Notes: a model not told the origin generated them from the sequence alone. 55,016 bases of DNA from Myxococcota bacterium (GCA_036012755.1 DASCPX010000072.1:1-55016); one strand, 5' to 3'; counted from the first letter of the stretch, positions 11,790 through 53,942 are shown. Made by a program: numbers and translations.

Positions 11790-11826
11790 TGGTAATAAGG
11801 ATCTTGAACTTTTCGGGAGGCGGCCG

Positions 11827-22605: not shown

Positions 22606-22619
22606 GCGAGCCTCGGAGC

Positions 22620-25084: not shown

Positions 25085-25098
25085 GCCGGTAGAGTGCG

Positions 25099-28050: not shown

Positions 28051-28109
28051 GACGTTCCTGTTTTTTCGGGGCGCGCATCATATCTTCCTCGACCGGCTTG
28101 GAGGCCTCG

Positions 28110-30555: not shown

Positions 30556-31134
30556 ATGAGCACCGAAGTGGTCGTCGTCCAAGGTCGAGCGGACGTCATG
30601 CGCGCCCTCGTCGAGGCTGCCACCATGCTCTTCGCGGAGCAGGGCATCTCCAGCACGTCCGTCCGGCGTATCGCCGCTGTCGCAGGGGTGAACCACGGAC
30701 TCGTGCATCGCCACTTCGGCTCGAAGGAGGCGCTGTTGCGCGCGGTCATGCGCAAGCTCGCCGCAGAGGTCATCGCCGCGATGCCGCCGGAGCGACCCGA
30801 CGAGACGATCAAGGATGTGCTCTACGGCGCGGTCGGCCCCAGCCAGCACCTCTTCAACCGCATCGTGGCGCGGGCCATGCTCGAGGGACGCGCTCCAGGA
30901 GAGCTCCAGGACGAGTGGCCGGTGGTCGAGCGCATGTTGAAGGCAGCGGCGAGGTCAGAGGGGGAGCTCAGCCCCGAGGCACACGTGGCGCTGATCATGT
31001 CCACGGGTCTCGGCCTGCTCTTCTTCCAGGACTACCTGCGCGAGGCAATCGGCCAGGACGAGGTCCAGTGGGCCTCGACGTGCGCCGAGTTCATGCGCTA
31101 CGCGACCCGAGGCGGAGCTCAGGGATCGGGCTGA
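30556..31134 (+). CDS. TetR/AcrR family transcriptional regulator
   Basis: LVEAATMLFAEQGISSTSVRRIAAVAGVNHGLVHRHFGSKEAL. Confidence 0.92.
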   Translation: MSTEVVVVQGRADVMRALVEAATMLFAEQGISSTSVRRIAAVAGVNHGLVHRHFGSKEALLRAVMRKLAAEVIAAMPPERPDETIKDVLYGAVGPSQHLFNRIVARAMLEGRAPGELQDEWPVVERMLKAAARSEGELSPEAHVALIMSTGLGLLFFQDYLREAIGQDEVQWASTCAEFMRYATRGGAQGSG

Positions 31135-31445
31135 CCTCTGTGGTCGGGCTGGAGTGGCGAGGTCGTCCAGGCGGCGTCTCGCAGCTCGTCGGCGTCGACC
31201 CGACCGTCGCCGTCCTGATCCCATCCGGCCATCGGTGTGCTCGACAGGTTCGCCCACTCCTCCGTATCGAGGTGGCCGTCACCGTCGCCATCGAGCACGC
31301 GCATGAGCTCCCAGGCCGACTGGGACGCCACCTTGCTGTCGTACTCGGCCCAGCTCCACCTGAGGGTGTTCCACCGCCTCGCGGCGACGAGGAGGAGCAG
31401 CGCGGAGGCGACGAGCAACAGCAGGGTCGTGCGCCGGGCGGTCAC
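31119..31445 (-). CDS. Small membrane-anchored EF-hand protein A
   Basis: N-terminal TM; DGDGDGHLDTEE and DQDGDGRVDADE. Confidence 0.8.
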   Translation of the reverse strand: MTARRTTLLLLVASALLLLVAARRWNTLRWSWAEYDSKVASQSAWELMRVLDGDGDGHLDTEEWANLSSTPMAGWDQDGDGRVDADELRDAAWTTSPLQPDHRGQPDP

Positions 31446-31466
31446 GAGGCGAATCGTACTCCCAGC

Positions 31467-32636
31467 CTATTCCCAGGTCTCGGGGTCGCCATAGCCAAGG
31501 GCCTCGGCGAGCTCGCGGATCTCGCGCTGGCGGAGGACACCGTCGAGGATCTCCCGCCGCGCGAACCACCGCCGAATGCGCGGACGCGCCGTCGCCATGA
31601 CCTTTGGGAGGGGAAGGGCGAGGCGCTCGCGGGCCGCGGGCGGGAGCTCCTCGCCGAGCCAGTCGAAGAGCTCGTCCAGCACGGCAAGTCGCGAGGGCGA
31701 GTCGCGCACGAAGTCCTCGAAGCGTAGGACGTGGCGGTCGAAGCCCTCGGCCTCGAGGATCGCGGCGTGGGCGCTGCGCCACTGGAAGGCGCAGACCTCT
31801 GGGAGTGGACGGCGCTCGTAGTCCTGCCAGCCCGGGGGAAGGTCGTACTTCCACCAGTGGGCGTCGGCTGGCCGGTGGTCCGTGTAGCCGGGGATCTCCA
31901 GGGGCGCGGGGAGCCGGTGGCTGTGGAAGCCGTGGAAGCGCCAGCCGTCGAAGAGGCCGTTGATCGCGCCCGCCGGGTTGCGCAGGAGGTGGAGCAGGCG
32001 GATGCGGGCCCTGGGAAAGAGCTTCGAGAGCAGCGGGAGGCGGTATGCGTTCGAGGGTGTCTTCACGAACAGCGGGCGGGTCCGCATCTCCTCCTCCGTC
32101 GCCCGGCGCCAGGGACTGATGGCGACGAAGGGCGGCTCCTCGAGCACCCGCTCTCCGGGCGGTCCGGTGGGTCCCGTGCCGCCCCACGGCAGGTCGTACC
32201 AGGCGGGATCGAGGCCCAGGCGCCGGAGGTTCTCGACGTGGTCGCCGACGATCGCCGTCCGTGGCAGCCGGTCGGGCCACTGCACGGCGAGGCGCCAGTC
32301 CAGATCGAGCTGCAGATCGGCCTGGTGCCCGGCGCGTTGGCCGATGTCGTAGGCGAGCTCGGCGGCGAAGAGCTCCGGGTCGCCCTCGTCGAGGCGGCTC
32401 AGGGCGTCGCTCTCGGGGAGGCCGGGCCACCCGTAGCCGGCGAGGCGCAGGAAGGGGTTGATCTCGGCGCGAAGGTGGAGCAGGCCCGGGATCTCGCGCA
32501 GGGCCTCGCTGAAGACGGAGCTCCCGCCCCGCGACGAGCTGACGATGAGGACGAGGTCGCGCACCTCTTCTCGCGGCTCGGGCCTGGGTCCGCGAGCCTC
32601 TCGGAGCTCGGCGAGCCGGGCGTGGAGAGCGTCCAT
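31467..32636 (-). CDS. Sulfotransferase-family protein, cytoplasmic
   Basis: IVSSSRGGSSVF (5'-PSB-like), FVKTPSN, HLLRNP, CAFQW, LRFEDF, AEALGY; start ATG 32636. Confidence 0.75.
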   Translation of the reverse strand: MDALHARLAELREARGPRPEPREEVRDLVLIVSSSRGGSSVFSEALREIPGLLHLRAEINPFLRLAGYGWPGLPESDALSRLDEGDPELFAAELAYDIGQRAGHQADLQLDLDWRLAVQWPDRLPRTAIVGDHVENLRRLGLDPAWYDLPWGGTGPTGPPGERVLEEPPFVAISPWRRATEEEMRTRPLFVKTPSNAYRLPLLSKLFPRARIRLLHLLRNPAGAINGLFDGWRFHGFHSHRLPAPLEIPGYTDHRPADAHWWKYDLPPGWQDYERRPLPEVCAFQWRSAHAAILEAEGFDRHVLRFEDFVRDSPSRLAVLDELFDWLGEELPPAARERLALPLPKVMATARPRIRRWFARREILDGVLRQREIRELAEALGYGDPETWE

Positions 32637-32661
32637 GGGGCGAGAGCCTATCCTCGCCGCG

Positions 32662-34074
32662 GTGTTTCTCCTCTTCGCCTGCGCCCCACCACCCAGCGAC
32701 GGCCCCCCGAACCTGCTCCTGGTCTCGCTCGACGGCGTCGCCGCGTTCCGCACCCACCTCGGCGGTGGGGACAACCCGAACACCCCGACCCTCGACCGCC
32801 TCGCAGCAGAGGGTCGCAGCTTCCCCCTGGCGTTCTCCCAGTCCAACGAGTCCCTCTTCAGCCACGCCTCGATGTTCTCGGGCCGCTACCCGAGCGAGAT
32901 CGCGGTGCCGACCTACGCGGCCTACTCGATCCCCGACGACGCGGTCCTCGTCAGCGAGATCCTCCCCCTCTATGGCTACACGACCGGGGCCTTCGTGGCT
33001 GGTGGCCACGTGAAGGGGGCCTACGGCTTCGACGAGGGCTTCGCCGTCTACGAGGACGACCACGACTTCGGCGCTCTCTTCCACACGGTGCCTGAGGCCC
33101 TCGACTGGCTCGAGGAGGTGCAGGAGCCCTGGTTCCTCGTGCTCCACGGCTACGACGTCCACCGGCCCTACCAGAAGGCCGGGGTCTTCGCCGAGGTCTT
33201 CGGCGAGGGACCCTCGGCGGCCACCCTTCGGGGCCTCTCCGGCACCGATCGCGTCTACCAGGGGCGCTACTACCCGGACTTCTCCGTCGAGCGGATCACC
33301 CACGTCACCGGCGACCCGATCGTGGATCCGGAGGGCTACCTGCGCATCGCGCGCTGGGCAGAGGGGCATGACGGGGAGCCCGTGAGCAGCGAGGACATCG
33401 CTGCCGTCGGCGACAGCTACGACGCCGCGGTGCTCGCCGCCGACCTGCAGCTCGGACGCTTCCTGGAGGAGGCTGGCGCCCGCGGTCAGCTGGACCGCAC
33501 CTTGGTGATCGCGACAGCAGATCACGGAGAGGATCTCCACGTCCACGGCCTCTTCAACCACCGGGCGCTGTTGCGCGACTCGACGACGCGGGTGCCCCTG
33601 GTCCTGTGGGGGGAGGGTGTGGAGCAAGGTGTGGACGAGGGCCTCGCCGCGGCTGTGGACATCGTGCCGACCCTGCTGGGCGCCGCTGGCGCCGTGCCTC
33701 CGGCGGGCGTAGCCGGGCGCGATCTGCTCTCTGCCGAGCCCGCTGCAGTCCATGTCTTCCAGGAGTCGGTCATGGACGAGCTCAGCGTGCGGAGCCAGAC
33801 CCACCGGCTCGTCTTCCGCGGCGTTCCGCCCGCCTTCGACCTCCTCGAGCTGGCCCTGGCAGTGGCGCCGATGCAGGCCCCCCACTTTGCCCTCTACGAC
33901 CTCCGCAACGACCCGGACGAGACCACCGATGTGCTCGCGGCGCAGCTCGAGGTGGCAGAGGAGCTCCGCGCCGCCATGCTCCGGTGGCACAGGGGGCTCT
34001 CGCGCGGTCAGCCCGGCTCGGTCGCGCGGGATCCGGAGCTGCTCCAGGCCCTCAGGGCGCGTGGGTACTGGTAG
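32662..34074 (+). CDS. Sulfatase-fold lipoprotein, NESxxSH type
   Basis: PNLLLVSLDG, QSNESLFSHAS, HGYDVHRPY, ADHGE, LYDLRNDPDE, LRARGYW; start GTG 32662 (VFLLFAC). Confidence 0.85.
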   Translation: MFLLFACAPPPSDGPPNLLLVSLDGVAAFRTHLGGGDNPNTPTLDRLAAEGRSFPLAFSQSNESLFSHASMFSGRYPSEIAVPTYAAYSIPDDAVLVSEILPLYGYTTGAFVAGGHVKGAYGFDEGFAVYEDDHDFGALFHTVPEALDWLEEVQEPWFLVLHGYDVHRPYQKAGVFAEVFGEGPSAATLRGLSGTDRVYQGRYYPDFSVERITHVTGDPIVDPEGYLRIARWAEGHDGEPVSSEDIAAVGDSYDAAVLAADLQLGRFLEEAGARGQLDRTLVIATADHGEDLHVHGLFNHRALLRDSTTRVPLVLWGEGVEQGVDEGLAAAVDIVPTLLGAAGAVPPAGVAGRDLLSAEPAAVHVFQESVMDELSVRSQTHRLVFRGVPPAFDLLELALAVAPMQAPHFALYDLRNDPDETTDVLAAQLEVAEELRAAMLRWHRGLSRGQPGSVARDPELLQALRARGYW

Positions 34075-34441
34075 CGAGCTCCCCGAAGTCGTCGACGCCG
34101 ATGGCCCGGAAGGCCTCGCCCCAGGCGACCAGCAGGGCCTCGTCATCGCCTGCTCGGGCCTCTGCCGAGGGGAACACAGGCTCCACACCTCGGGCCGCTG
34201 CCTCGATCAGCATGCGGTCCTCGAGGATGCGATCGAGGGCTCTGATCCCCCGGGCCTGGTCGGCGGCGAGGTAGTCGGCGGCGAGCTCCTCCTGCTGGTC
34301 CATTGGCGGCGGTGGGGGCCGCTCCAGCGCAACCGAGGGCGGGGGCATCGGGGCCATGTACAGGCCCGCAGCGAGCAGGCCAGTGAGCCCGAGGGCACTG
34401 GCGGCGCCCCAGCGCGCGCGCTCCCAGGACCGTGGTGTCAT
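34052..34441 (-). CDS. Hypothetical membrane-anchored protein
   Basis: N-terminal TM, Pro-rich linker, helical domain; TATACC 7 nt before ATG. Confidence 0.65.
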   Translation of the reverse strand: MTPRSWERARWGAASALGLTGLLAAGLYMAPMPPPSVALERPPPPPMDQQEELAADYLAADQARGIRALDRILEDRMLIEAAARGVEPVFPSAEARAGDDEALLVAWGEAFRAIGVDDFGELATSTHAP

Positions 34442-34468
34442 GAGCCCTGGTATATCCTTCGCTTCGCC

Positions 34469-34768
34469 ATGATCGACAAGCTCCTTGGGGCCGCCACCGC
34501 GGTCCTGGTCGTGCTCATCGGCGTCAGCCTCACCTCGAGGCCCACGCCGAGGGCTCCTCGGGCTGCCGCGGACCTCGCCGCCGTCATCGACGCCGACAGG
34601 GACGGGGTCGACGCCGCGGACTACGAGCGGGTCTCAGATGGGATCGTGCCCTTCGAGCTCGTCGATCTCGACGGCTCTGGTGAGCTGGAGGCCTGGGAGC
34701 TCGACGTGCTGCTGCGCACCCAGAGCCCCCTCGTCCCGCAACCCAACCGGCTCCCGCAGGTCTACTGA
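34469..34768 (+). CDS. Small membrane-anchored EF-hand protein B
   Basis: MIDKLLGAATAVLVVLIGVSL; DADRDGVDAAD and DLDGSGELEAWE. Confidence 0.78.
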   Translation: MIDKLLGAATAVLVVLIGVSLTSRPTPRAPRAAADLAAVIDADRDGVDAADYERVSDGIVPFELVDLDGSGELEAWELDVLLRTQSPLVPQPNRLPQVY

Positions 34769-34906
34769 GTGGAGAAGCTCACCCGCGCTGCGCTGCTCCT
34801 GCTTGCCCTGAACGTGATCGTGCTGGTGGTGCTCTACCTGCTGCCGATGCCCGATGAGGGCGAGATCCCGGGTCGAGATGCCCGCACCATCGTGGGCACG
34901 CCGTGA
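34769..34906 (+). CDS. 45-aa single-TM small protein (not in ORF track)
   Basis: VEKLTRAALLLLALNVIVLVVLYLLPMPDEGEIPGRDARTIVGTP; exactly fills the gap, and its stop overlaps the next GTG. Confidence 0.65.
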   Translation: MEKLTRAALLLLALNVIVLVVLYLLPMPDEGEIPGRDARTIVGTP

Positions 34907-37221
34907 GCCCTTCGACCCGCAGCATCCTCCTGGTCGTCGCGGCGATGGCCGCCTTTTCGCTGATGGCGCTGTTCACGCGGGCCGCGGACGCCAGCGCCTT
35001 CACCGTCGCCGCTTGGCGCGGCATCTTCGTCGCCCTTGCCTTCGGGTCGTGGATGATCGCCAAGGAGGGGCCTCGCAGCTTCAAGGTCGACGGCCAGACG
35101 CTTCGCATCGCCGGGATCATGGGCGTCGCGCTCGCGGTCGCCAGTGGGACCTTCGTCGCCGGCTACGTCTACACGACCGTCGCCAACACGATCTTCCTCC
35201 ACAACCTCGCCCCGGTGGTCGTGCTGCCGCTGGCATGGTGGGCCTTCCGGGAGCGACCGGGGGCCGCTGTCCTCGCTGGCGCCGCCATCGCCGTGGCCGG
35301 AATCGCGCTGTTGTCCGGTGTCTCTTTCGTGCAGGTCGCCCACTTCGCGAACCCCCAGTTCCTGCTCGGCGACGGCCTCGCCCTGGTCAGCGCGCTCGGC
35401 TACGCGGTCGTCCTCGTCGTCACCCGCGAGAGCCGGCAGCGGACAACGCCGATCGTCGCGACGTTGTTCTATGCCTGGCTCATCGCCGCGGTCCTGCTGA
35501 CGGCCACCGCGCTCCTGGTCGACACGATGGCCGCGAGCTGGACGAGCCTGCTCTGGATCGTCGGGCTGGCCCTGGTCTGCACCAACCTCCCCTTCGTGCT
35601 GCTGAACCTGGGCATGAGGCGGGTCGGAGCGGGGCTCGCGAGCGTGCTGTCGCTCTCAGAGGTCGTCTTCGCCACCCTGTTGGGCGTCGTGGTCTATGGC
35701 GAGGATCTCTCCCCCGCCGGCTGGCTGGGTGGGGGCCTCGCGGTCATAGGTGTGCTCTACGCCCTGCGACAGGGCGGCCGGGACTTCGAGGACCCGCGGG
35801 CCCTGCCGCATGCGGCCCGCGCCCCTCGATTGGTGCGTCTCGGCCTGGCGCTCGTGGCGCTGAACGCCGCTGGCATCGCGAGCCTGCTCGGCGGCGGGGC
35901 TGCGCTCCTGGCCTTCTGGGCGTTTCTCCGACTCTCACGCGGCGCACCCTCGGCGGTGGCGGTGTTCCTCGGCGCGCGCCGGGCTGCGTGGGCCCGGTGG
36001 GGCGCCGTCGCCCTGAGCGGGGTGGCTGGCGTCGTCGTCCTGACCCGCGCCTCTGAGCCCGAGGGCAGCGTCTTCGTCCTCGCCGGCGCGCTGTTGTTGT
36101 GGGGTGTCGACCGCTACGCCGCGGACAAGGAGCCTGCCGAAGCACGGGACCACGACCGGCTTGGCCAGCTCGCGCTGTTGGCGGTCGTCGCCGCAGAGGG
36201 CTTCGCGCTGCTCGCTCACGACGCCTCCATCTGGACGACCTGGATCGCTCGGGCCGCGCTCGCGCTCGCCGCCCTCGAGGTAGTCGCCAGCGGCATCCGC
36301 GGGAGCCTGCACCTCCGCCCGGCCCCGCCCCCACTGGGGGATCATGGGCGCTGGTTCCGTGCCCCGGTGCTGGTTGCTGCGGCGCTGTTGTTCTGGCTGC
36401 TCGGTGGCGTGCACGCCGTGCCGGCTGGCCATGTCGGCATCGTCGAGCGCTTCGGCGCCCCCCAGGCAGACCTCGCCGAGCCCGGTCTGCTCATCCAGGC
36501 ACCCCCGCCGATCGACCGGGTCGTCGAGGTCCACGTCGCCCGGGCCAGAGAGGTCGAGATCGTCGAGCCGGGGACGCCGCTGTTGTGCGGAGACCAGGGC
36601 ATGGTCTCGCTCTCCGCGACCCTCGCCTACCGGGTCGACGACCCCGTGCGGTGGACCTATGGATACGCCGACCCCGACGCCGTCCTCGCCGAACTGGCTC
36701 GTAGCGCCCTGGTGGAGATCCTGGCGGGGAGCTCTGCCGACGAGGTCCTCGCAGAGGGTCGCGCCGATGTCGAGGAGCGCAGCGCGGCGCGGACCCAGGT
36801 GGTAGCCGCGGAGCTCGGCGCCACGATCGACGCCATCCACCTCCAGGTGGTGCGCGTGCCCCCGCCGGTTCAGGCCGCCTTCCTCGACGTCATCAGCGCC
36901 GACGAGGAGCGCCTGACCACCATCAACGAGGCCCACGCCTACGCCGCGCAGGTGCTGCCGGAGGCCGGGGGCCGCGCGGTGGAGATCCTGGCCGCCGCCG
37001 ACATCTCGGCCTTCGAGATCGGCGCCCGCGCAGAGGTCGATAGGCAGGTCTTCGAGGCCATCTCGAGAGGAGGATCGCCCAGCGACCGCCTGACTCGTGA
37101 GCGCCTCGCCATCGAACACGCGGAGGCGACCCTCGCCCCCGCGAAGCTCCTCGTCGTCCCACGGGATCTGCGCCTGTGGATGGGCGACGTAGAAGCCTCC
37201 CCGACGCTGGAGATCCCATGA
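34903..37221 (+). CDS. EamA/DMT transporter fused to extra TM region and C-terminal SPFH (HflK-like) domain
   Basis: First ~285 aa are two EamA repeats (TTVANTIFLHNLAP, GDGLAL.SAL.YA, ASVLSLSEVVFA). C-terminus has GHVGIVERFG, LLCGDQGMV, PPPVQAAFLDV, INEAHAYA..LPEA.G. Confidence 0.85.
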   Translation: MSPSTRSILLVVAAMAAFSLMALFTRAADASAFTVAAWRGIFVALAFGSWMIAKEGPRSFKVDGQTLRIAGIMGVALAVASGTFVAGYVYTTVANTIFLHNLAPVVVLPLAWWAFRERPGAAVLAGAAIAVAGIALLSGVSFVQVAHFANPQFLLGDGLALVSALGYAVVLVVTRESRQRTTPIVATLFYAWLIAAVLLTATALLVDTMAASWTSLLWIVGLALVCTNLPFVLLNLGMRRVGAGLASVLSLSEVVFATLLGVVVYGEDLSPAGWLGGGLAVIGVLYALRQGGRDFEDPRALPHAARAPRLVRLGLALVALNAAGIASLLGGGAALLAFWAFLRLSRGAPSAVAVFLGARRAAWARWGAVALSGVAGVVVLTRASEPEGSVFVLAGALLLWGVDRYAADKEPAEARDHDRLGQLALLAVVAAEGFALLAHDASIWTTWIARAALALAALEVVASGIRGSLHLRPAPPPLGDHGRWFRAPVLVAAALLFWLLGGVHAVPAGHVGIVERFGAPQADLAEPGLLIQAPPPIDRVVEVHVARAREVEIVEPGTPLLCGDQGMVSLSATLAYRVDDPVRWTYGYADPDAVLAELARSALVEILAGSSADEVLAEGRADVEERSAARTQVVAAELGATIDAIHLQVVRVPPPVQAAFLDVISADEERLTTINEAHAYAAQVLPEAGGRAVEILAAADISAFEIGARAEVDRQVFEAISRGGSPSDRLTRERLAIEHAEATLAPAKLLVVPRDLRLWMGDVEASPTLEIP

Positions 37222-38081
37222 AGCGCAAGCTCGTCACCGGGGCTGTCGTCGCGATCGTCTGTGCCGCGTGCGTCTCGACGCTCTACACCGTCGACGCCCG
37301 CGAGGTCGCCGTCGTCACCTTCTTCGGAAAGCCGGTGGCCAACCGCATCGAGCCTGGCCTGTACGTCCGGGCGCCCTGGCCGCTCCACCAGGTCACCCGC
37401 TACGACCGCAGGGCACGGCTGCTCGACGTCGAGCCAGCAGAGGTGCTCACGAGGGACAAGAAGAACCTCGTCGTCGAGGCCTTCGTGCTGTGGCGCGTCG
37501 CCGACCCGGAGCGCTTCCTGGAGTCCGTGGGCAGCGCAGAGGCCGCCGAGACCCAGCTCTCCGACCTCGTCGTCAGCCGCATCGCCGCCAGCTTCGGACA
37601 GCGGGAGTTCCACGACCTGATGAAGGTCGGTGGCTCCGAGCCGACCCTGCCAGCCGATGTCGTGACCGCCACCGCAGAGGTCGCCAACGCGCGCCTCGGC
37701 GTCGAGGTGGTGGACGTGCGACTCCGCCAAGTCGGCCTGCCTGTCCAGAACGAGCAGTCCATCTACGAGCGCATGCGCGCCGAGCGTCGCCGCATCGCCA
37801 ACGCATACCGCAGCGAGGGCGAGGAGAAGGGCAGCGTCATTCGGGCCGAGGCCGATCGCCAGGCCGCCGAGATCCTCGCTCGCGCAGACGCGGAGGCCGC
37901 CGGTGTTCGAGCCGTCGCCGAGGAAGCGGCCGCTGAGAGCTACGCCAGGACCTACAAGCAGGACCCGGAGCTCTTCCGCCTGATCCGCCGCCTCGAGGCC
38001 AGCGAGGTCCTCCTCGACAACGACAGCGTGCTCGTGGTCGAGCAGGGCGCGCTGGTCGGTGCCCTCGTGGAGGGTCCCTGA
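37218..38081 (+). CDS. HflC-like SPFH protein
   Basis: VVTFFGKP, LTRDKKNLVV, WRVADP, IYERMRAERRRIANAYRSEG, DPELF. Confidence 0.88.
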   Translation: MKRKLVTGAVVAIVCAACVSTLYTVDAREVAVVTFFGKPVANRIEPGLYVRAPWPLHQVTRYDRRARLLDVEPAEVLTRDKKNLVVEAFVLWRVADPERFLESVGSAEAAETQLSDLVVSRIAASFGQREFHDLMKVGGSEPTLPADVVTATAEVANARLGVEVVDVRLRQVGLPVQNEQSIYERMRAERRRIANAYRSEGEEKGSVIRAEADRQAAEILARADAEAAGVRAVAEEAAAESYARTYKQDPELFRLIRRLEASEVLLDNDSVLVVEQGALVGALVEGP

Positions 38082-38083
38082 CG

Positions 38084-40520: not shown

Positions 40521-40522
40521 GC

Positions 40523-41062
40523 CTAGCCCTCCTGTGGGGCGGCGACCTCGGACTCGTCCACTCGCCCGTCGTCGTTGGTGTCGAGGTGGATGAAGATCTC
40601 GGGTGGGCCGGGGAACTCGGAGCGGTCGAGCGCACCGTCGCCGTCGGCGTCCGCGGCCGGGATCGGGAAGTCCCTCCAGCGCTCGAGGAGCTCGCCCACC
40701 TGGCCGCGGGTGGACTTGAGCTCATCGCGAGTCACGAAGCCGTCGCCGTCGGTGTCCCGCTCCAGGAAGCGGGCTGCCCACTGGCCGTCCTCGCTGTATT
40801 CGCTGATGGACACGCGGCCGTCCCCGTCGCGGTCGAGCTCCATGAACGCCCCTCGGAGGCCGTCCTTTGGGGCGCTGGGGCGATCGCCCTTCTTCTTCGC
40901 CGGTTCCAGGACTGGAGGAGGGAGCTGGGGCTGCGGGCGGGGCTCTTCGTCGGGGGCGGCCTCGAGGCTCGGTGGCACGCTGCGGGTCCAGCCGAGCCAG
41001 GCGAAGCCCGCCACGGTCAAGGTGGCGGCCAGCACAGCGAGTCCCTGGGCTGCGGTCGACAT
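40523..41062 (-). CDS. Membrane-anchored protein with four EF-hand motifs
   Basis: DRDGDGRVSISE, DTDGDGFVTRDE, DADGDGALDRSE, DTNDDGRVDESE; start ATG 41062. Confidence 0.82.
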   Translation of the reverse strand: MSTAAQGLAVLAATLTVAGFAWLGWTRSVPPSLEAAPDEEPRPQPQLPPPVLEPAKKKGDRPSAPKDGLRGAFMELDRDGDGRVSISEYSEDGQWAARFLERDTDGDGFVTRDELKSTRGQVGELLERWRDFPIPAADADGDGALDRSEFPGPPEIFIHLDTNDDGRVDESEVAAPQEG

Positions 41063-41093
41063 CGGCGGCGAGCATACGACGTAGAATGAGGCC

Positions 41094-42065
41094 GTGAAGC
41101 GTGCGTTGCGGTGGCTGGCGGTTGGAGCCCTGGCGCTGGCCTTGATCTTTGCCGTCGTCGTCGGCCCGCCCGCCCAGGTCCGTGTCCTGGAGACCGGCGT
41201 CTCCTGCCGCATGGTCGACGAGACTCTCGGCGTCGCCACCTACCAGCCGCGGTGCAAGGGGGAGCGCGACATCGGCGAGGGGCCCGTCCCCTTCCTGATC
41301 AACGGCAGGGGCTTCCGGGGGGCACCCCCGATCGAGGGAGCCCGGCGCGTGCTGCTCCTCGGTGGTTCTCGGGCCTTCGCGCCCGGCCTGACGAACGCCG
41401 AGGAGCCCTCTGCCGTCGCCGAGGCCTACCTCCAAGAACACGACCGCGCCGGCGTGGACATCCTGAACCTGTCGGTAGAGGGCTACTCCTCGATCCAACA
41501 CGCCATCCGCCTGCCCAAGTACCTCGCACATTACGAGCCAGACCTCGTGGTGCTAACGACCTTCACCCGACGCGGCATCTACAGGGAACACCTCGTGGAG
41601 CCGGAGCGGAACGACAATGGCTACCCGCTGCGCCTGCTCGGGGCGGACCCCGGCTGGCTCCACTTCACCTCTTCGTGGAGTCTGCGCGACGCAGGCGCAT
41701 TGCCCTTCGCCGGCCCCGCGCTGGATTCGACCAAGAACATGGCGCGCCTGTGCCGGAGCAAGGGCGTGAAGTTCCGCGTCGCCTGGGACGGGCGGGGTCT
41801 CTCCAATGCCCGGAGCAGCGGCGCCAAGGAGGGAAGCAGCGCGCTGCGATGGCTCACGCCACGGGTGGAGGTGACCAGCGACGACCTGGAATGGTTGATC
41901 GTCGAGAAGGGGGTGCCGCTCTACTACGCCGCCGACTGGTATCCGGACCGGGAGCTGGAACCGGAGCTCTTCACACCGGACGGCTCGTTCGCCACCGCCG
42001 AGGGTGTGGACCGTCTCGGCTTCGGGCTCGCGCGGCTCGTGGACGGGCTGATGTACAAGGACTAG
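41094..42065 (+). CDS. SGNH/GDSL-like membrane-anchored protein with degenerate active site
   Basis: INGRGFRG, RVLLLGGS, ILNLSVEGYS, PDLVVL. Confidence 0.65.
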   Translation: MKRALRWLAVGALALALIFAVVVGPPAQVRVLETGVSCRMVDETLGVATYQPRCKGERDIGEGPVPFLINGRGFRGAPPIEGARRVLLLGGSRAFAPGLTNAEEPSAVAEAYLQEHDRAGVDILNLSVEGYSSIQHAIRLPKYLAHYEPDLVVLTTFTRRGIYREHLVEPERNDNGYPLRLLGADPGWLHFTSSWSLRDAGALPFAGPALDSTKNMARLCRSKGVKFRVAWDGRGLSNARSSGAKEGSSALRWLTPRVEVTSDDLEWLIVEKGVPLYYAADWYPDRELEPELFTPDGSFATAEGVDRLGFGLARLVDGLMYKD

Positions 42066-42985
42066 CCCCGGCGCAGGATGCCGGTAGCGCACCCGATCGC
42101 CCCAGCGGCGTCGAGGTAGGGGCGGACATCCACCGTGTGGGTCACCACCCCGAACGACTCCATGCGCTCGCGTAGCCGGGGGGCTCCCGTCGGCATGAGC
42201 ACCTCTGTTGGTGCCAGGGCGACGAGGTTGTTCCCCCGAGCGATGGCGACCTCCGGGTCGTCCTCATCGAGCTCGATCACCTCGACTCCGGAGAGGGCCT
42301 CACGCAGGCTCGCCGATGCCATCGCGGGTCGCAGGAGCACGAGGTCGTCCGCCAGGGGCGTACAGATCCCCAGCAGGTGCTGCGCTCCACGCTTCGGCAG
42401 CTCCACCTGCTGGACCTCGACACCCTGCCGCGCGAGGATCTCCTCGACGAGCGCGGCGCCCGCCTGGTTGGTTCGCAGACCGACTCCCAGGAGCACCCGG
42501 TCCTTGCCCAGCCAGAGCGCGTCGGCTCCCTCGAAGGTGGCCCCGCCCGTCGGCGTGGCGAGGATGGGCACCCCCAGGCCCGCCAGCGCCGCGGCGGCGA
42601 AGCGCTCCTCTCCTGCCCGAGCCCGGCCCGCGAGGCGGCCCAGGATCGCTCCCTCCGCGGACATGAAGAAGAGGTCGGCGGCGAAGATGACGTTGGGCGG
42701 TGCCCCCTCCGTGTCGATCCAGGAGACCTCTACGTCGAGGGCCTCCCATGCGGCCGCGAGGCGCAGCGAGGCGGCCCTGGTCGCCTCGAGATCCGGGACG
42801 CGCTCCATGAGCCAGCCCTCGGCGTCGTCGATCTCGCCGAGGCTCTGTGGTGGCCTGGCGAGCAGGACGTGCCGAAGGCGCTGTACAGAGGACCGTGCGC
42901 CGCACTTCAGCCAGGCGCCGCCGAGCTCTTCTGCGTGGGTGGTCGTGCGGGGCTCGAAGCCCTCGCCGCCGTAGGTCGCCTTCAT
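42062..42985 (-). CDS. Amidinotransferase/dimethylargininase (DDAH-like) family protein
   Basis: LRHVLLARP, RAGEE, FEGAD, GLRTN, HLLG, GAIGCAT; ATG 42985 coupled to upstream stop. Confidence 0.8.
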   Translation of the reverse strand: MKATYGGEGFEPRTTTHAEELGGAWLKCGARSSVQRLRHVLLARPPQSLGEIDDAEGWLMERVPDLEATRAASLRLAAAWEALDVEVSWIDTEGAPPNVIFAADLFFMSAEGAILGRLAGRARAGEERFAAAALAGLGVPILATPTGGATFEGADALWLGKDRVLLGVGLRTNQAGAALVEEILARQGVEVQQVELPKRGAQHLLGICTPLADDLVLLRPAMASASLREALSGVEVIELDEDDPEVAIARGNNLVALAPTEVLMPTGAPRLRERMESFGVVTHTVDVRPYLDAAGAIGCATGILRRG

Positions 42986-43959
42986 CGGAGGCCCAGCTTC
43001 ATGCGCGCCACCCGCGCCCGGCGGCGCCAGCGCAGCCAGTGGATGCGGTCCCCCTGGAGGCTGCGGAGCTCGCTCTGCACGCGCATGACGAGGTCGCGGG
43101 CTCGGGCCTCGAGGAAGTCCCTTTGACTCGGCGTTGGCCCTGGTGCCTCGGGACGGTAGCCGAGCTCCTGCATCACCTCGCCGGCGACGGCCTCGACCTG
43201 GGCGAGCTCTCTCTTCGTCAGGCCCTTGCGCCACTTCTCCGTGTTGTTCCGCATCACCGGCTTGTTGTTGTTCTCCCAGGACTTGGAGAGCCCGGCGGTC
43301 CGGCTGGCCCTCGCCCTGTCGTGGAAGCTCAGCATCGCCTCGTGCATGGTGATGCCGACGTGGTCGCAGAGCCGCGCCGTCATCAGCTCTGGCGAGGCGA
43401 GCACGTCCTCGTAGTGGAGTCGCATGACCCGCTCGGGCCCCAGCCGCTGTGCCACGTCGATGGCGACCCGCTGCTGCCGGGCCCACAGCCCGGCGGTGAG
43501 CAGGGGCTCGAAGGGGTTGAAGACCGAGGTCTTCGAGGACAGGGCCACGTCGCGCACGTCGCGGACGAGCCAGACGAAGCGGGCGCCTGGACGGCGAGCC
43601 AGGATCTCGTCCACGAACTCGACGACGAAGGTGCTCTTGCAGCCCCAGTGGGTCGCCCCTCCGTGACTCGCGACGAGGTCGTAGAGCGCGAGGAAGACGC
43701 CGACGACGGTGGGGTCATCGCGTGCCTCTGACGCGAGCTCTGCCGCCGTGGGCATCCAGTCCCAGGGGTGGATGTGGCCGCGCACCATCGCGAGGGTGTC
43801 GGCGACGATGTCGTCGAGGCCTTCGTGATCGAGATCGCCCAGGTAGCGGAGCAGGTGAGGGGGGTGGGGCACGACGACCTCGGGGTGAGCGTCGAAGATC
43901 ACCCGCAGCAGGTTCGAGCCGCTGCGCTCCGTCCCGATGATGAAGAAGGCCTCACTCAC
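42982..43959 (-). CDS. PAPS-dependent sulfotransferase, cytoplasmic
   Basis: IIGTERSGSNLLR, WGCKST, LVRDVRDVALS, LHYED, MQELGY. Confidence 0.88.
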   Translation of the reverse strand: MSEAFFIIGTERSGSNLLRVIFDAHPEVVVPHPPHLLRYLGDLDHEGLDDIVADTLAMVRGHIHPWDWMPTAAELASEARDDPTVVGVFLALYDLVASHGGATHWGCKSTFVVEFVDEILARRPGARFVWLVRDVRDVALSSKTSVFNPFEPLLTAGLWARQQRVAIDVAQRLGPERVMRLHYEDVLASPELMTARLCDHVGITMHEAMLSFHDRARASRTAGLSKSWENNNKPVMRNNTEKWRKGLTKRELAQVEAVAGEVMQELGYRPEAPGPTPSQRDFLEARARDLVMRVQSELRSLQGDRIHWLRWRRRARVARMKLGLR

Positions 43960-44251
43960 GGTCAGACCCGGGCATTCGGATCACCCAGAGGGGGTCGAGC
44001 TCCTCGACGAGGATCTCCACCTCGCGGGGGTCGAGGCGGTCGTCGCGGTTCAGGTCGTGCAGGCGCCAGGAGAAGCCGGGGGGATCGCTGCCGGTGAGCT
44101 CCTCCGCCTCGAGCCACCCCGACTCGTCGGTGTCGAACTGGGCCAAGAGGCGCTGGGCCTGCAGGGGGTGGTGGGGACCCGCGCCCCACAGCAGGAGCGC
44201 GATCGCCAGCGCGCTGAGCAGGATCGCCAGGGCGAGCATGGTCGCTCTCAC
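43952..44251 (-). CDS. Small membrane-anchored EF-hand protein C
   Basis: MLALAILLSALAIALLLWG; DTDESGWLEAEE and DLNRDDRLDPRE; start GTG 44251 or ATG 44239. Confidence 0.78.
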   Translation of the reverse strand: MRATMLALAILLSALAIALLLWGAGPHHPLQAQRLLAQFDTDESGWLEAEELTGSDPPGFSWRLHDLNRDDRLDPREVEILVEELDPLWVIRMPGSDRE

Positions 44252-45558
44252 TGCAGCTCCGCGAAGAGCTCTGGGCCGAGCGGATCGGACCAGGACAGCG
44301 GCTCGCCGTGGGGCCCGGTGATGAAGGCACCCGGGGGGGGCTCCTCTGGCCACTGGTCGGATCCATGAGGCATCGCCAGGCGACCCTCGGCGGAGCGGAG
44401 GCTGACGGTGCCGAGCACCGCCTCGCTGTAGACCACCCGGTCCGGATCCGGAGACAGCAGATCCTGGCCCCGGGTCTCCGGCACCCGGACTCCGCTCAGC
44501 CCTGCCAGCGTCGGAAGGATGTCGACCAGGCCCACCGGCGTGGCGACGGCGCCGGGCTCGATGCCGGGGCCGCGAAGCATGAGCGCGACGTGGATGTTCT
44601 CGTCGTGGAGCGAACTGCGGTGGTTGACGTGGCCATGATCGAGGAGGTCCTCTCCGTGGTCGCTCATCACGACCACGACGGTGTCTCCTGACAGCCCGCG
44701 GTCCTCTAGCTCGGCCAGCAGGACGCCGACGTGGTAGTCCGCGTAGCGCACCGAGCCGTCGTAGAGCCCGCGCACGAAGGCCTCGTCCTCTGGCCCCAGG
44801 GTGATGCCCTCGCCCTCGTGGCCCGCGGCCCAGGTCTCCAGCTCGTCGAAGAGCGCCGGGTCGAGCACCGTTCGGCCACCGGTGGAGATGTTCTGCGGGT
44901 CGAAGCCGGGGTGCAGCACGCCGTCGAGGATCTGCTCGCAAGTCCAGGGGATCAGCGCGCGCTCCAAGAGCGGTCCGTTGTAGCCGGGCGTGTCCCCACG
45001 AAAGAGCGGTCCCCACTTCAGGTAGGGGGCGTGGACGTCGTAGCCGTGGACGAACATGAGCCAGGGCCGGTCACCTTCTTCGAGCACGTCGATGCGCTCG
45101 AGCGCCAGCGGCACGGTCTGCTGGAAGCTCCCGAAGTCGTCCCCGGAGGCGTAGCGCTGGAAGCCGACACCGAGGCCGAACTCGGGCGCGAGGTGTCCAC
45201 CGGCGACCACCGCCTCCGTGGCGTAGCCGGAGCGAGAGAAGACGGCGGCCATGGTCTCCTGGTCGGCCCGGAAGCCGTAGGTCGCGTAGTCGAGCTCGCC
45301 CATCTCGCTGGGGTAGAGCCCGGTGAACACCGAGGCGTGGCTGTAGAGGGTCTCGTTCGCCTGGGACCACGCGGACTCGAAGACTCGCGCGTCCCTGGCG
45401 AAGGCGTCGAGGTTCGGTGTCATCGATCTGCCCTCCGCGTCCCGCCTCCCGACGCGGTCCGCGCGGAGGGTGTCGATGCTCACGACGAGCACGTTCGGCG
45501 GGCCCGGGGCGGGTTCGCCACAGGCCGAGAGAGACAACAAGAGAGTCCACGACAGCAC
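44248..45558 (-). CDS. Sulfatase-fold lipoprotein, NETxxSH type
   Basis: PNVLVVSIDTLRAD, QANETLYSHAS, HGYDVHAPY, SDHGE; GTG 45558 lies 6 nt after TACGAT. Confidence 0.85.
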   Translation of the reverse strand: MLSWTLLLSLSACGEPAPGPPNVLVVSIDTLRADRVGRRDAEGRSMTPNLDAFARDARVFESAWSQANETLYSHASVFTGLYPSEMGELDYATYGFRADQETMAAVFSRSGYATEAVVAGGHLAPEFGLGVGFQRYASGDDFGSFQQTVPLALERIDVLEEGDRPWLMFVHGYDVHAPYLKWGPLFRGDTPGYNGPLLERALIPWTCEQILDGVLHPGFDPQNISTGGRTVLDPALFDELETWAAGHEGEGITLGPEDEAFVRGLYDGSVRYADYHVGVLLAELEDRGLSGDTVVVVMSDHGEDLLDHGHVNHRSSLHDENIHVALMLRGPGIEPGAVATPVGLVDILPTLAGLSGVRVPETRGQDLLSPDPDRVVYSEAVLGTVSLRSAEGRLAMPHGSDQWPEEPPPGAFITGPHGEPLSWSDPLGPELFAELQ

Positions 45559-45593
45559 GGTGCTATCGTACGTCGCCATGCACGCGAGGAGAT

Positions 45594-45986
45594 GTGGACA
45601 GGCTGCATCGCGGGCTCGCAGTGGCCCTGCTCATCGCCAACGCTGGCGTGCTGGCCTTCGTGCTCGCCTCCGCGGCCCGGTTGGTGCCTTCGTGGTTCGA
45701 TCGTCCGGGGAGCGAGGCCGCCGCGGCGAGCGCGCCGAGCATCCACAAGACCCGTCACAGCCCTCCCGGGGACGAGTGTGACCACGTCCTCGTGCAGCTG
45801 CGCACCGCCATCCTGGAGCTCCACGGCGGCCACCTCCCGCCGGAGGAGGAGGCGCGCATCGACGCGCTTCGCGGCAGTGGCAACTGCTCGGCGGGCAGCG
45901 AAGAGGTGGAGGCCCTCCGCGACGAGCTCTCGAGCGCCTTCCACGAGCAGGGCCGGGAGCCTCCGGAGTTCCTGGGGCTCCAGTGA
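45594..45986 (+). CDS. Hypothetical membrane-anchored protein with a Cys pair
   Basis: VDRLHRGLAVALLIANAGVLAFVL...; stop overlaps next GTG. Confidence 0.65.
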   Translation: MDRLHRGLAVALLIANAGVLAFVLASAARLVPSWFDRPGSEAAAASAPSIHKTRHSPPGDECDHVLVQLRTAILELHGGHLPPEEEARIDALRGSGNCSAGSEEVEALRDELSSAFHEQGREPPEFLGLQ

Positions 45987-47368
45987 TCGTCCCGCTCCTG
46001 GCCTGCGCGGTGCCGGGCGCCCAGCCCAACCTCGTCCTGGTGAGCATCGACGGTCTCCGGATGGACCGGACGAGCCTCGGCGCCGAGCGCGACACGACGC
46101 CGAACCTCGCCCGTCACGCGGCAGAGGGCCTCGTCTTCAACAGCGCTTTTTCCGCCAGCAACGAGTCGGCCCTGTCCCACGGTGTGCTGTTGACCGGCCG
46201 CTACGTGCCCGAGATCGCGGTCCCGGACTACACCACCTTCATCCTCCCGGAGGGGCTGACCACGCTGCCCGAGGCGCTCCAGCAGGTCGGCTACGAGACC
46301 GCTGGGATCCTCGCTGGTGGACACCTGCGCTCGACCTTCGGCTTCGGCCAGGGCTGGGACCACTTCGTCGAGGTCAGCGACTTCGGCAGCTTCCAGGAGT
46401 CAGTCCCAGAGGCCCTGAGCTGGCTCGAGATGCGCGACAGCCCGGAGCCCTTCTTCCTGATGGTCCACGGCTACGATCTCCACCGGCCCTACGCCAAGAC
46501 CGGGCCCTTCTTCCATGCCTTCGGCGGCGACTACGAGGGACCGATGTGCGCGCTGGCCTCAGAGCGAAACGAGACCGAGCGCATCTTCCGTGGTGTGCTC
46601 TACCCGGAACACGAGCGCCCGACCGTGCGACATGCCTCCGGCGCCGAGATGAGCGACCCCCGTCAGTACGCCGCCGGCCTCGAGCGGACCGAGGGCGGCA
46701 CGCCCCTGTCCTCGGCGGACCTCGAGCACATGCGCGACCACTATGACGGAGGCGCTCTTGCCGCGGACTTCTACCTGGGCGTCCTGCTCGACAGTCTGCC
46801 CGAGAACACCGTCGTCATCGTCACGAGCGACCACGGCGAGGACCTCCAGGACCACGGGGTGAGCAACCACCGCGCCGTGCTGCATGACAGCACCACCCAC
46901 GTCCCCTTCGTGATCCTCGGAGCGGGCCAGGGACAGCGCGACGACCTCGTCAGCGCCACGGACGTCGTGCCGACGATGATGGCGCTGGCCGGGTCGACGC
47001 CTCCAGCTGGCGCTCGCGGCCTCGACCTGCTCGCGGAAGCTCGCGACGATGGCCTCTTTCAGCAGGGGGTGATGGGACAGAGCGCCATGCGCTCCACCAC
47101 CCACCGCCTGCTCTTCGAGGGTCTCGAGCTGGACGATCCCCAGTACCTGCGCGTCGCCTACGAGTCCGACATCGGAGACCACTTCCGCCTCTACGACCTC
47201 CGCACCGACCCCGATGAGCAGCTCGATGTGCTCGCCGAGCAGCCGGCCATCGCCCGGGCGCTGCGAGAGGAGCTCGTCGAGGTCCTCGCGTCCCTTGCCT
47301 GGAGCGACGCGGCGAGGGCGCCCACGCCAGAGGTGATCGAGGCCATGCGAGCTCGCGGCTACTGGTAG
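45983..47368 (+). CDS. Sulfatase-fold lipoprotein, NESxxSH type
   Basis: PNLVLVSIDG, ASNESALSHG, HGYDLHRPY, SDHGE, LYDLRTDPDE, MRARGYW. Confidence 0.85.
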   Translation: MIVPLLACAVPGAQPNLVLVSIDGLRMDRTSLGAERDTTPNLARHAAEGLVFNSAFSASNESALSHGVLLTGRYVPEIAVPDYTTFILPEGLTTLPEALQQVGYETAGILAGGHLRSTFGFGQGWDHFVEVSDFGSFQESVPEALSWLEMRDSPEPFFLMVHGYDLHRPYAKTGPFFHAFGGDYEGPMCALASERNETERIFRGVLYPEHERPTVRHASGAEMSDPRQYAAGLERTEGGTPLSSADLEHMRDHYDGGALAADFYLGVLLDSLPENTVVIVTSDHGEDLQDHGVSNHRAVLHDSTTHVPFVILGAGQGQRDDLVSATDVVPTMMALAGSTPPAGARGLDLLAEARDDGLFQQGVMGQSAMRSTTHRLLFEGLELDDPQYLRVAYESDIGDHFRLYDLRTDPDEQLDVLAEQPAIARALREELVEVLASLAWSDAARAPTPEVIEAMRARGYW

Positions 47369-47379
47369 CGTGGCGGTCG

Positions 47380-48381
47380 ATGTTGCTCGCCCTCCTTGGC
47401 TGCTCTGCGCTGAGCCAACGCTACGCGGCCTCGAATCTGGAGCCCGGGACCACCATGTTCGGGCTTAGCTACCCGGCCAATGCCCAGCAGATCCTCCATG
47501 TCGACGTCAAGGGCGAGGTCCTCTGGTCCTACACGCTCCCCTACGGGGTCTTCATGCAACAGGGCCAGCTCGGGCCGTCGATGTTGATGGACGTCGAGCC
47601 CCTCGAGTCAGGGAACGTGCTCTTCACCGTGTTCCCAGGTGGCGTCTACGAGGTCGACCGGGAGGGCCGCATCGTCTGGTACTACCTCGACGATGTCGCC
47701 AGTCACGACTCTGACCGGCTCGACAACGGAAACACGCTGATCGCTCGCACCTGGGCGAAGAAGGGCGACTTCCAGGTCATAGAGGTCGACGCTGACAGGA
47801 AGGTCGTGTGGGGCTGGGTCGGTGCTGGCTTCGGCGAGGACGAGCGCTTCGTCTCGATCTCCGACGAGGGCGACGCGTGGATGCACATCACCAACGTCGA
47901 TCGCACGCCCGAGGGGCTGACACGGGTCTGCGTCCGCAACTTCAACGCAATCGTCACCATCTCCCCGGAGGGCGAGGTCGTCGACGAGTTCTTCCTCCAG
48001 ACCCTCCCCAAGACCACGGTGGCCGAGACCACGGGCACCCTCGTCGGTGAGCGCCCTCACGCGGCCGAGTGGCTCGACGACGGACGCTTCTTGCTGGCGA
48101 CGCGGCGCCCGGACAAGATCGTCGAGATCGGTGATGGAGAGGTGACCTGGAGGTTCAAGGACCCGACCGTCGCCAGTGTTCGGGACCTCGATCGGCTGCC
48201 AGGCGGCAACACCTTGATCGCGGCCAGGGATCGCATCATCGAGGTCGACCCGGGCGGCACGGTCCTGTGGCAGTGGACGATCCCGAATCCACCTGATTGG
48301 ACCGTCTCCTGGAACCAGCTGCATCCGCTGATGAGCGTCACCCGCGTCGCGCCGGATGGGACCTTTGTGGACCGGGACTGA
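47380..48381 (+). CDS. Arylsulfotransferase (ASST)-like beta-propeller lipoprotein
   Basis: SHDSDRLDNGNTLI, WMHITNVD, VRNFNAI, RPHAAE, RDLDRLPGGNTLI; MLLALLGC. Confidence 0.65.
   Translation: MLLALLGCSALSQRYAASNLEPGTTMFGLSYPANAQQILHVDVKGEVLWSYTLPYGVFMQQGQLGPSMLMDVEPLESGNVLFTVFPGGVYEVDREGRIVWYYLDDVASHDSDRLDNGNTLIARTWAKKGDFQVIEVDADRKVVWGWVGAGFGEDERFVSISDEGDAWMHITNVDRTPEGLTRVCVRNFNAIVTISPEGEVVDEFFLQTLPKTTVAETTGTLVGERPHAAEWLDDGRFLLATRRPDKIVEIGDGEVTWRFKDPTVASVRDLDRLPGGNTLIAARDRIIEVDPGGTVLWQWTIPNPPDWTVSWNQLHPLMSVTRVAPDGTFVDRD

Positions 48382-50065: not shown

Positions 50066-53942
<3,877 letters not shown>

Follow-up and report, generated by a model that had tools for sequence, protein, structure and literature searches.

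What does a bacterium build with genes for sulfatase-fold proteins, sulfotransferases, EF-hand proteins, and a transporter fused to an SPFH domain when all of these lie side by side? The question is raised by positions 31119 to 48381 of a Myxococcota DNA stretch (GCA_036012755.1, DASCPX010000072.1:1-55016; hereafter the window, i.e., the whole 55,016 nucleotides that were analyzed), which an earlier note, made from the sequence alone, had read as a cell-envelope sulfation or modification system. On balance, the region is moderately likely to be one half of a two-locus biosynthetic system that is homologous to the nucleocidin/ascamycin sulfamyl (H2N-SO2-O-) genes and is coupled to an export and processing module of its own. 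The features new to this system are (i) an operon with a DMT-HflK fusion, (ii) exported Thr/Ser sulfatase-fold enzymes in several copies, and (iii) EF-hand partners, which are once fused to the enzyme. The cluster is a conserved functional system and exceeds chance, because its neighborhood is conserved in related genomes; homologs are thus not scattered among relatives, and the earlier claim of a single conserved system holds. Genes were called in the window (~70% GC) from third-position GC bias (GC3), and the called genes were scanned with Pfam and NCBIfam profiles. Signal sequences, lipoboxes, and N-terminal transmembrane (TM) stretches were read by eye from the translations.

Nucleocidin and ascamycin provide the reference gene sets. 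The parts of two reports that were available describe sulfamate natural products as exceedingly rare and of actinomycete origin (PMC9113183, PMC10946740), and the former, a 2021 review, gives the mechanism of S-N bond formation as unknown in the part at hand. According to the available portion of the nucleocidin knockout work (PMC10946740), nucI, nucG, nucJ, nucK, and nucL along with nucN, nucO, nucQ, and nucP as well as the genes for 3′-phosphoadenosine-5′-phosphosulfate (PAPS) are each needed for sulfamylation and not for fluorination. The same portion describes NucK as a strong Sulfotransfer_3/Sulfotransfer_1 protein, NucO as having a weak central Sulfotransfer_3 match and a CurM/olefin-synthase fold, NucN as an amidinotransferase, NucL as a methyltransferase, and NucQ as a pseudo-rubrerythrin. 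The ascamycin gene table, in the excerpt consulted (PMC4257720), comprises acmG (sulfatase, 480 aa), acmH (radical SAM/B12), acmI (“acylsulfatase”, 302 aa), acmJ (Fe-S oxidoreductase, 557 aa), acmK (sulfotransferase, 356 aa), acmL (methyltransferase, 250 aa), acmN (amidinotransferase, 319 aa), acmO (hypothetical, 444 aa), acmP (“DNA topoisomerase II”, 658 aa), and acmQ (rubrerythrin, 155 aa), and the best homologs of acmG, N, O, P, and Q are given there as consecutive Frankia genes. A literature search for newer sulfamate enzymology returned nothing beyond these three papers. The earlier statement that no described pathway has a composition like that of the window has to be given up, as the cluster matches the nucleocidin sulfamylation genes and acmG-acmQ of the ascamycin cluster.

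The match is carried by three proteins of the window. g12 (42062..42985, minus strand) is a 307 aa NucN/AcmN-like enzyme of the DDAH/amidinotransferase fold with a C-terminal GCATG cysteine; it matches PF02274 and, at E 3e-9, DDAH structures, so that the amidinotransferase of the earlier note is borne out as a DDAH/ADI fold. Over 304 aa, including the C-terminal G-C-x-T-G motif, g12 is 46% identical to a Streptomyces calvus/S. virens “amidinotransferase” cluster (P0259, 15 sequences). That cluster is most likely NucN, since nucN is stated in the available part of PMC10946740 to have no paralog in the producers.

g13 (42982..43959, minus strand, 325 aa) is a NucK/AcmK-like sulfotransferase of the PAPS type that carries both Sulfotransfer_3 (E 1.9e-30) and Sulfotransfer_1 (E 5.2e-7), as described for NucK, the two being compared by description. 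Its nearest solved relatives are the olefin-synthase/CurM sulfotransferase and TPST. g3 (31467..32636, minus strand, 389 aa) is a NucO/AcmO-like protein of the sulfotransferase fold, with the conserved motifs SSSRGGSS and RNPAAAINGL and a Sulfotransfer_3 match (E 1.5e-5) under the Pfam cut-off. It has no solved relative by sequence and was recognized by fold search: an AlphaFold2 (AF2) family model (pLDDT 78.5, pTM 0.84, 11 sequences) matches the sulfotransferase folds STF9 (2Z6V), 4GOX, 4GBM, and TPST2. Like NucO, g3 thus combines a weak Sulfotransfer_3 match with fold matches that include both folds reported for that protein. g3 and g13 both lack a signal sequence, as expected of the two cytoplasmic sulfotransferases announced earlier, and the genome holds two APS-kinase genes for PAPS supply.

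The g3 family reaches well into the actinomycetes. Among 8000 candidates scored, 603 proteins match g3 at E <=1e-5, and the 120 matches listed include many actinomycete proteins of 442-456 aa with 42-47% identity and 94-100% coverage, from Streptomyces, Saccharothrix, Micromonospora, Actinomadura, Nonomuraea, and others. In [Kitasatospora] papulosa, a single contig carries homologs of both g3 and g12, with accession numbers that differ by 12. A plasmid collection queried with g3 returned haloarchaeal megaplasmid sulfotransferases beside cysC in defense islands and not the gene set of the window. One of these, on the Halomicrobium salinisoli plasmid NZ_CP084467.1 (L078, 14821-17918 of the locus; 34% identity, 89% coverage), has cysC and a gene of the YqcI/YcgG family as neighbors, in a stretch framed by BREX and McrBC genes; 10 haloarchaeal megaplasmids carry sulfotransferases of this kind, which may belong to a defense-island sulfation module.

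The remaining members of the set are found at a second locus. Neighborhoods in relatives add a B12 radical-SAM protein (best NCBIfam matches HpnJ and BchE, sub-threshold), a protein of 657-670 aa that matches gyrase B over its first 400 residues (E 1e-133) and ends in a class-I methyltransferase (GyrB-MT), a second methyltransferase, and a small ferritin/rubrerythrin-like protein. In the genome of the window (G000), these four genes stand together on contig C179 (locus L076, 10146-17870), and none is in the window. Relatives carry the genes of both loci side by side. The C179 fusion (643 aa), with HATPase_c, DNA_gyraseB, and Methyltransf_11 domains, is of the NucP type. The rubrerythrin-like (152 aa), methyltransferase (229 aa), and B12 radical-SAM (566 aa) genes flank GyrB-MT both on C179 and in relatives, and are likened to NucQ, NucL, and NucJ by type and size only. 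With GyrB-MT as the query, the plasmid collection yielded only ordinary gyrB and no record with at least 80% coverage. The GyrB-derived ATP-binding domain could, speculatively, hint at a substrate resembling an adenine nucleotide. The second locus also has another ASST-like gene beside it, and 3 kb upstream there is an MBOAT gene.

Co-occurrence ties these proteins to one another. When a sample of 41 related genomes from an uncultured order of marine Myxococcota is compared, the 18 that have g3 are precisely those that have g12 and those that have the full-length GyrB-MT fusion. One of these 18 genomes, G033, has on contig C28 the genes in the order g13-g3-g12, a gap, then a g9-type gene, B12 radical SAM, rubrerythrin-like, and GyrB-MT (this sulfotransferase-pathway set is called the cassette below); it has no SPFH module, and neither a separate NucL-like methyltransferase nor an ASST-like gene was matched in its cassette. 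In G002, too, the cassette is contiguous, on contig C33. The G033 g9-type protein is 51% identical to g9, has a lipoprotein signal, and reads W-T-V-P-S-H. As its gene lies within the cassette, the g9-type enzyme is a cassette member, one that is exported also in the absence of the SPFH module.

Two other pathways were considered for this set and rejected. A ribosomally synthesized and post-translationally modified peptide (RiPP) pathway was suggested by a TPST-like sulfotransferase, B12 radical SAM, and an M13 peptidase; no precursor turned up, nor did a peptide exporter, and the set is better explained by the nuc/acm match. An arsenic or osmolyte methylation pathway rested on weak ArsM-like scores only. 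The M13 (neprilysin-type) metallopeptidase gene, which is absent from the window, lies between the g12 and g6 homologs in L014 (16506-18599), L024 (1818-3959), L057, and L064, and before g6 in L047, where no g12 was matched. Also beside the cassette, at L055 of genome G037 (48% GC, 1-9253), there are genes for a Rce1-like protease, an LMW-phosphatase/ArsC-like protein, and a QueG-like Fe-S protein, as well as an alginate-export-type outer-membrane porin that could serve as the outer-membrane exit of the product.

Compared with the nuc/acm set, the myxobacterial genes encode the same protein types at similar lengths, including the rare GyrB-N/methyltransferase fusion and the PAPS route. They differ in that (i) the hosts are Gram-negative marine Myxococcota and not actinomycetes, (ii) nucleoside, fluorination, and glucosylation genes are missing, (iii) the sulfatase-fold component is exported (by eye), multiplied, and of the Thr/Ser type, (iv) a DMT-HflK fusion, HflC/HflK paralogs, and EF-hand partners have been added, and (v) in the genome of the window the set is split over two loci.

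The sulfatase-fold component comprises four window proteins, all found by PF00884 (E 6e-28 to 1e-32), so that the four exported sulfatase-fold proteins of the earlier note are all present, their export being read by eye. g4 (32635..34074, plus strand; E 4e-32) and g17 (45983..47368, plus strand; E 1.3e-32) are exported lipoproteins of the Ser type (NESLFSH and NESALSH, respectively), and g15 (44248..45579, minus strand; E 5.8e-32) is one of the Thr type (NETLYSH). Lipobox-like LFAC, LSAC, and LLAC were read in these three. g9 (38905..40383, plus strand, 492 aa; E 6e-28) is a Thr-type enzyme (WTLPSH) anchored by one N-terminal TM helix. Two subfamilies can be distinguished, the g9 type and the g4/g15/g17 type, with 38-44% identity among the latter (g4 and g15, 39%; g17 and g4, 44%) and 27-31% to g9. 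Counting C179, the genome has five sulfatase-fold copies.

Judged by their sequences, these “sulfatases” are not formylglycine sulfatases, as C/S-x-P-x-R is absent from all four. When the nucleophile position is fixed by alignment to the Cys/Ser of C/S-x-P-x-R in solved sulfatases, it falls on T-L-P-S-H in g9, T-L-Y-S-H in g15, S-L-F-S-H in g4, and S-A-L-S-H in g17; the wider pattern C/S-x-P/A-x-R is likewise found in 0/4, Thr or Ser standing in its place. In g9 orthologs the Thr is kept in 15/15 and the His in 14/15. Among 170 aligned segments (148 proteins of the 150 closest g9-family representatives), C-x-P-x-R does not occur once and Thr is dominant. The proteins share with S1 sulfatases the PF00884 and SGSH_C matches and the conserved SDHG metal motif, and their best solved relatives are mucin-desulfating and choline sulfatases (E 1e-25). 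They differ from S1 sulfatases in having Thr/Ser with His in place of the Cys/Ser and Arg of C/S-x-P-x-R, and in the replacement of the sulfate-pocket lysine (H-G-H or N-H-R). Within the alkaline-phosphatase superfamily, it is typically the phosphoryl- or group-transferring members, and not the S1 sulfatases, that use Thr or Ser as their nucleophile. PF01663 matches the N-terminal region that holds S-x-D-x-x-R and T-x-P-x-H, motifs that we take to resemble those of nucleotide pyrophosphatases/phosphodiesterases.

These features bear on the simplest use of exported sulfatases, namely a scavenging locus that would free sulfate or carbon from marine sulfated compounds, with the remaining genes devoted to regulation and uptake. 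Four PF00884 proteins in DNA of marine origin are what such a locus would call for. With the C/S-x-P-x-R formylglycine motif in 0/4 of the proteins and in none of the 150 closest representatives, with sulfotransferases that are anabolic, and with a cluster devoid of glycoside hydrolases, SusC/D, and TonB uptake genes, scavenging is highly improbable.

The EF-hand proteins accompany the sulfatase-fold enzymes. g2 (31119..31445, minus strand, 108 aa; EF-hand_1 E 3e-10, with an N-terminal hydrophobic stretch) and g10 (40523..41062, minus strand, 179 aa; EF-hand_1 E 7e-17) are membrane-anchored and exceed the Pfam cut-offs. g5 (34469..34768, plus strand, 99 aa, membrane-anchored; E 1e-3) and g14 (43952..44239, minus strand, 95 aa, with a signal-like N-terminus; E 2e-5) fall below them, and each has two canonical 12-residue loops, read from the sequence. 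On C179, an EF-hand pair and a sulfatase-fold domain stand in one frame behind a lipoprotein signal, and this fusion ties the EF-hand modules to the sulfatase-fold enzymes. An EF-hand gene also follows a g15-type gene in L016 and L018, and a 63% identical g5 homolog precedes g6 in G002. The trio of sulfatase-fold, EF-hand, and sulfotransferase genes does occur twice in the window, at 31.1-34.1 and 43.0-45.6 kb, as had been pointed out. The two are not repeats of one unit or the outcome of a duplication, because BLASTP shows no relationship between g3 and g13 (E 0.65), although g4 and g15 are paralogs.

The export part of the system centers on three genes whose profile matches confirm the DMT-SPFH fusion with HflC/HflK-like partners of the earlier note. 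g6 (34903..37221, plus strand) is a 772 aa protein with about 12 or more TM helices, in which a DMT transporter (EamA in two stretches, E 2.3e-27) is fused to an HflK-like SPFH domain (Band_7, E 1.7e-20). Over the C-terminal 300 aa it resembles E. coli HflK (E 3e-28, aligned to HflK residues 83-342), and its DMT half has no solved relative by sequence. g7 (37218..38081, plus strand), which shares its first 4 nt with the end of g6, is HflC-like and passes TIGR01932 (hflC; 171 bits, cut-off 134.4). g8 (38084..38923, plus strand) is HflK-like; against TIGR01933 (hflK; cut-off 159.4), g8 scores 158.5 and g6 120.5 bits, both below. The four genes g6-g9 are tightly packed (4-nt overlap, 2-nt gap, 19-nt overlap), as are g15-g14-g13-g12, an operon whose first gene is g15. 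Four further SPFH genes exist elsewhere in the genome, so that the HflK/C-like pair of g7 and g8 is not the only one there.

Like the HflK/HflC-FtsH complex of E. coli (PDB 7VHP, 7WI3), the proteins of the module each have an N-terminal membrane anchor followed by an SPFH and a helical region. The module differs from that complex in that one HflK-like subunit forms a single chain with a DMT transporter of 10 TM helices and additional TM helices, which precede it, and in that the g6-g9 operon contains no FtsH gene and has a TM-anchored alkaline-phosphatase-superfamily enzyme as its conserved fourth gene. The literature searched for SPFH with EamA (titles and abstract starts) yielded no published description of a DMT-HflK fusion operon.

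The fusion is not a singularity of this genome. Public protein data contain 85 full-length relatives, and both domains are present in 84 of them. Among genomes, the fusion occurs in 41 species-level records, each with a title that marks it as one of the metagenome-assembled genomes (MAGs), mostly Myxococcota or “Deltaproteobacteria”. Contig ends truncate many of these 41 loci, of which 34 contain g7 and 33 contain g8. Of the 33 with g8, 27 have a g9 ortholog (at least 50% identity) whose start lies no more than 600 bp behind g8; among the other six, three break off less than 400 bp from g8, one carries g9 at a distance of 7 kb, and g9 is missing from two. Recurring neighbors in the 41 loci are g3 (14), B12 radical SAM (13), methyltransferases (8), g13 (7), and g12 (7), and g15-type orthologs (43-53% identity) lie upstream of g6 in five. 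g6-g9 were also detected in 20 DNA sequencing runs of marine, seawater, and vent metagenomes, none of those listed being RNA.

Several points weigh against a sulfamyl-type system with its own exporter. The nucleoside-tailoring genes (PNP, APRT, glucosyltransferase) are absent from the window. The sulfotransferases lack signals whereas the sulfatase-fold enzymes look exported, so that a transport step must be assumed. g9 can be likened to NucG/AcmG, and g18 to NucI/AcmI, by gene type only, and the closest named relatives of g9 (10 representatives checked) are Myxococcota and Elusimicrobia MAGs, none of them actinomycete. All carriers are uncultured MAGs, and the related genomes are kin and not independent, so that the co-occurrence counts overstate support and are descriptive only. 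The two modules are also separable: G026 has g6-g8 and lacks g9, g3, g12, and GyrB-MT, and G027, G033, and G038, which belong to one family, have the cassette without g6-g8.

This separability, together with the partial or complete placement of the cassette and the g6-g9 operon on different contigs in G000 and G002, is also what one would expect if g6-g9 were a membrane-homeostasis module (an HflK/C-like assembly combined with a transporter and a hydrolase of phospho- or sulfo-esters) that has no role in the sulfotransferase pathway and adjoins it through genome organization only. Against such unrelated neighbors, 15 of the 16 related genomes with the g6 fusion also have the cassette as opposed to 3 of the 25 without it; g9, the last gene of the operon, has its 51% identical lipoprotein counterpart inside the G033 cassette; and G026, the sole genome with g6-g8 and no cassette, is also without g9. 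Mere adjacency is hence an unlikely explanation. The DMT-HflK/HflC/HflK trio is a lineage-specific add-on that stands immediately before g9.

The proposed pathway would start in the cytoplasm with the PAPS-dependent sulfation of a small acceptor by g13 and g3. The sulfate ester would then be reworked towards an S-N compound by g12 and the radical-SAM, methyltransferase, GyrB-MT, and rubrerythrin-like proteins, a step proposed because the Streptomyces knockout phenotypes imply such roles for g12 and the C179 enzymes. The intermediate or product would be exported by the DMT domain of g6. Outside the cytoplasm, Thr/Ser-nucleophile enzymes of the alkaline-phosphatase superfamily and the ASST-like protein, with their Ca2+-binding EF-hand partners, would transfer or unmask the group, and g6, g7, and g8 would build a complex resembling HflK/C, in which the exporter and TM-anchored g9 are kept together. 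From sequence features, g4, g9, g15, g17, and g18 are candidate outside-acting enzymes. As the earlier note had inferred, the system may be responsive to Ca2+ and scaffolded by its SPFH proteins. The earlier idea of an activated group that is made in the cytoplasm, exported, and processed outside agrees with the signal-less sulfotransferases, the DMT exporter, and the exported enzymes.

g18 (47380..48381, plus strand, 333 aa) is the single ASST-like lipoprotein that had been predicted; its PF05935 match (41.1 bits, cut-off 24.2) spans only profile positions 26-207 of 374. A PAPS-type sulfotransferase together with an ASST-like protein recalls, in gene types only, the caprazamycin cluster, where sulfate is transferred in two carrier-mediated steps by PAPS-dependent Cpz8 and then ASST-type Cpz4, as cited in the available part of PMC4257720. 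The present case differs in that ASST-like g18 is a predicted lipoprotein outside the cytoplasm and in that no pyrone synthase is found here. By analogy, this co-occurrence suggests that the group may be relayed through a small carrier.

The same parts can be arranged into envelope sulfation, in which a cytoplasmic sulfuryl donor would be exported by the DMT domain and installed or trimmed on an envelope polymer or lipid by the ASST-like and sulfatase-fold enzymes. Signal-less sulfotransferases, an exporter, and exported ASST-like and alkaline-phosphatase-superfamily enzymes fit this arrangement, carrier-mediated transfer by Cpz8/Cpz4 (as cited in the accessible part of PMC4257720) is a precedent, and both the SGNH-like g11 and the MBOAT gene near the second locus could act on polymers. 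Nothing, however, points to the cell envelope as the target that the earlier note had assumed: no glycosyltransferase, polysaccharide-export gene (Wzx/Wzy, ABC polysaccharide exporter), or lipid-carrier gene was found in the window or the related loci scanned (the window cluster, 34 flanking open reading frames (ORFs) of seven loci, eight ORFs of L055, and three of L062), and the strictly co-occurring partners GyrB-MT, B12 radical SAM, and the DDAH-fold enzyme are parts of a small-molecule pathway. Envelope sulfation is accordingly unlikely.

A bolder version of the sulfamyl-type system, which we hold to be improbable, assumes an HflK/C-like cage with transporter-bearing subunits. The DMT domain would feed a sulfated or sulfamoyl intermediate into a periplasm-facing chamber, in which g9 would form a covalent sulfuryl- or sulfamoyl-threonine and pass the group on.

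g11 (41094..42065, plus strand) is a 323 aa TM-anchored protein whose earlier assignment as SGNH-like finds a lead in Atlas GDSL/SGNH clusters (0.96) and structure TM values of 0.63-0.69 and no Pfam or NCBIfam match; the SGNH/GDSL likeness is a lead only. Of the four small single-TM proteins counted earlier, only two could be recovered, namely g4b (34052..34441, minus strand, 129 aa) and g16 (~45594..45986, plus strand, start uncertain), which have a coding-like GC3 phase and no Pfam match. In the related loci searched, g4b has a homolog (40% identical) only in a genome of the same genus, and g16 has none. g1 (30556..31134, plus strand; TetR_N E 2.7e-17) is a TetR-family regulator that may regulate the system locally; tblastn gave no match in 55 related loci, and its proximity to the system is not kept in relatives.

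On the left, the cluster is bordered by unrelated genes, i.e., the TetR gene, a MopE-like lipoprotein, and apparent pyrimidine/beta-alanine catabolism genes, and on the right by an equivalog-level asparagine synthase B. The latter (AsnB, 48405-50060; 781 bits) was rejected as a cluster member on this assignment and its absence from related loci. The MopE-type lipoprotein, with putative metal-binding repeats, lies at 29420-30496, just left of the cluster, and has a weak relative upstream of g6 in L052. Look-alikes of reductive pyrimidine/beta-alanine catabolism genes flank the cluster on both sides (21502-30000 and 50066-53978), with DHO_dh-like, amidohydrolase, CN_hydrolase, class-III aminotransferase, and aldehyde dehydrogenase genes as well as a sodium:solute symporter and a xanthine/uracil permease. 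Farther off, positions 10348-18089 hold, in a row, genes for VTC-domain, NosD/PMP-repeat, and lamin-tail-domain proteins and three tandem CotH kinase-like genes.

The presence of the gene set in 18 of 41 related genomes and of more than 600 NucO-like proteins in public data suggests that this chemistry is far more widespread than its known products. The myxobacterial versions offer mechanistic handles that are absent from the Streptomyces clusters, namely an exported Thr-type enzyme, EF-hand partners, and a dedicated exporter. If the cage were real, a key step of sulfamyl assembly would be extracytoplasmic and compartmentalized, and sulfamoyl metabolites would be common in marine Myxococcota. 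With a transporter-HflK fusion and its conserved client enzyme, SPFH proteins would have a second kind of client in addition to FtsH, and ideas on the purpose of SPFH cages could be tested on this model.

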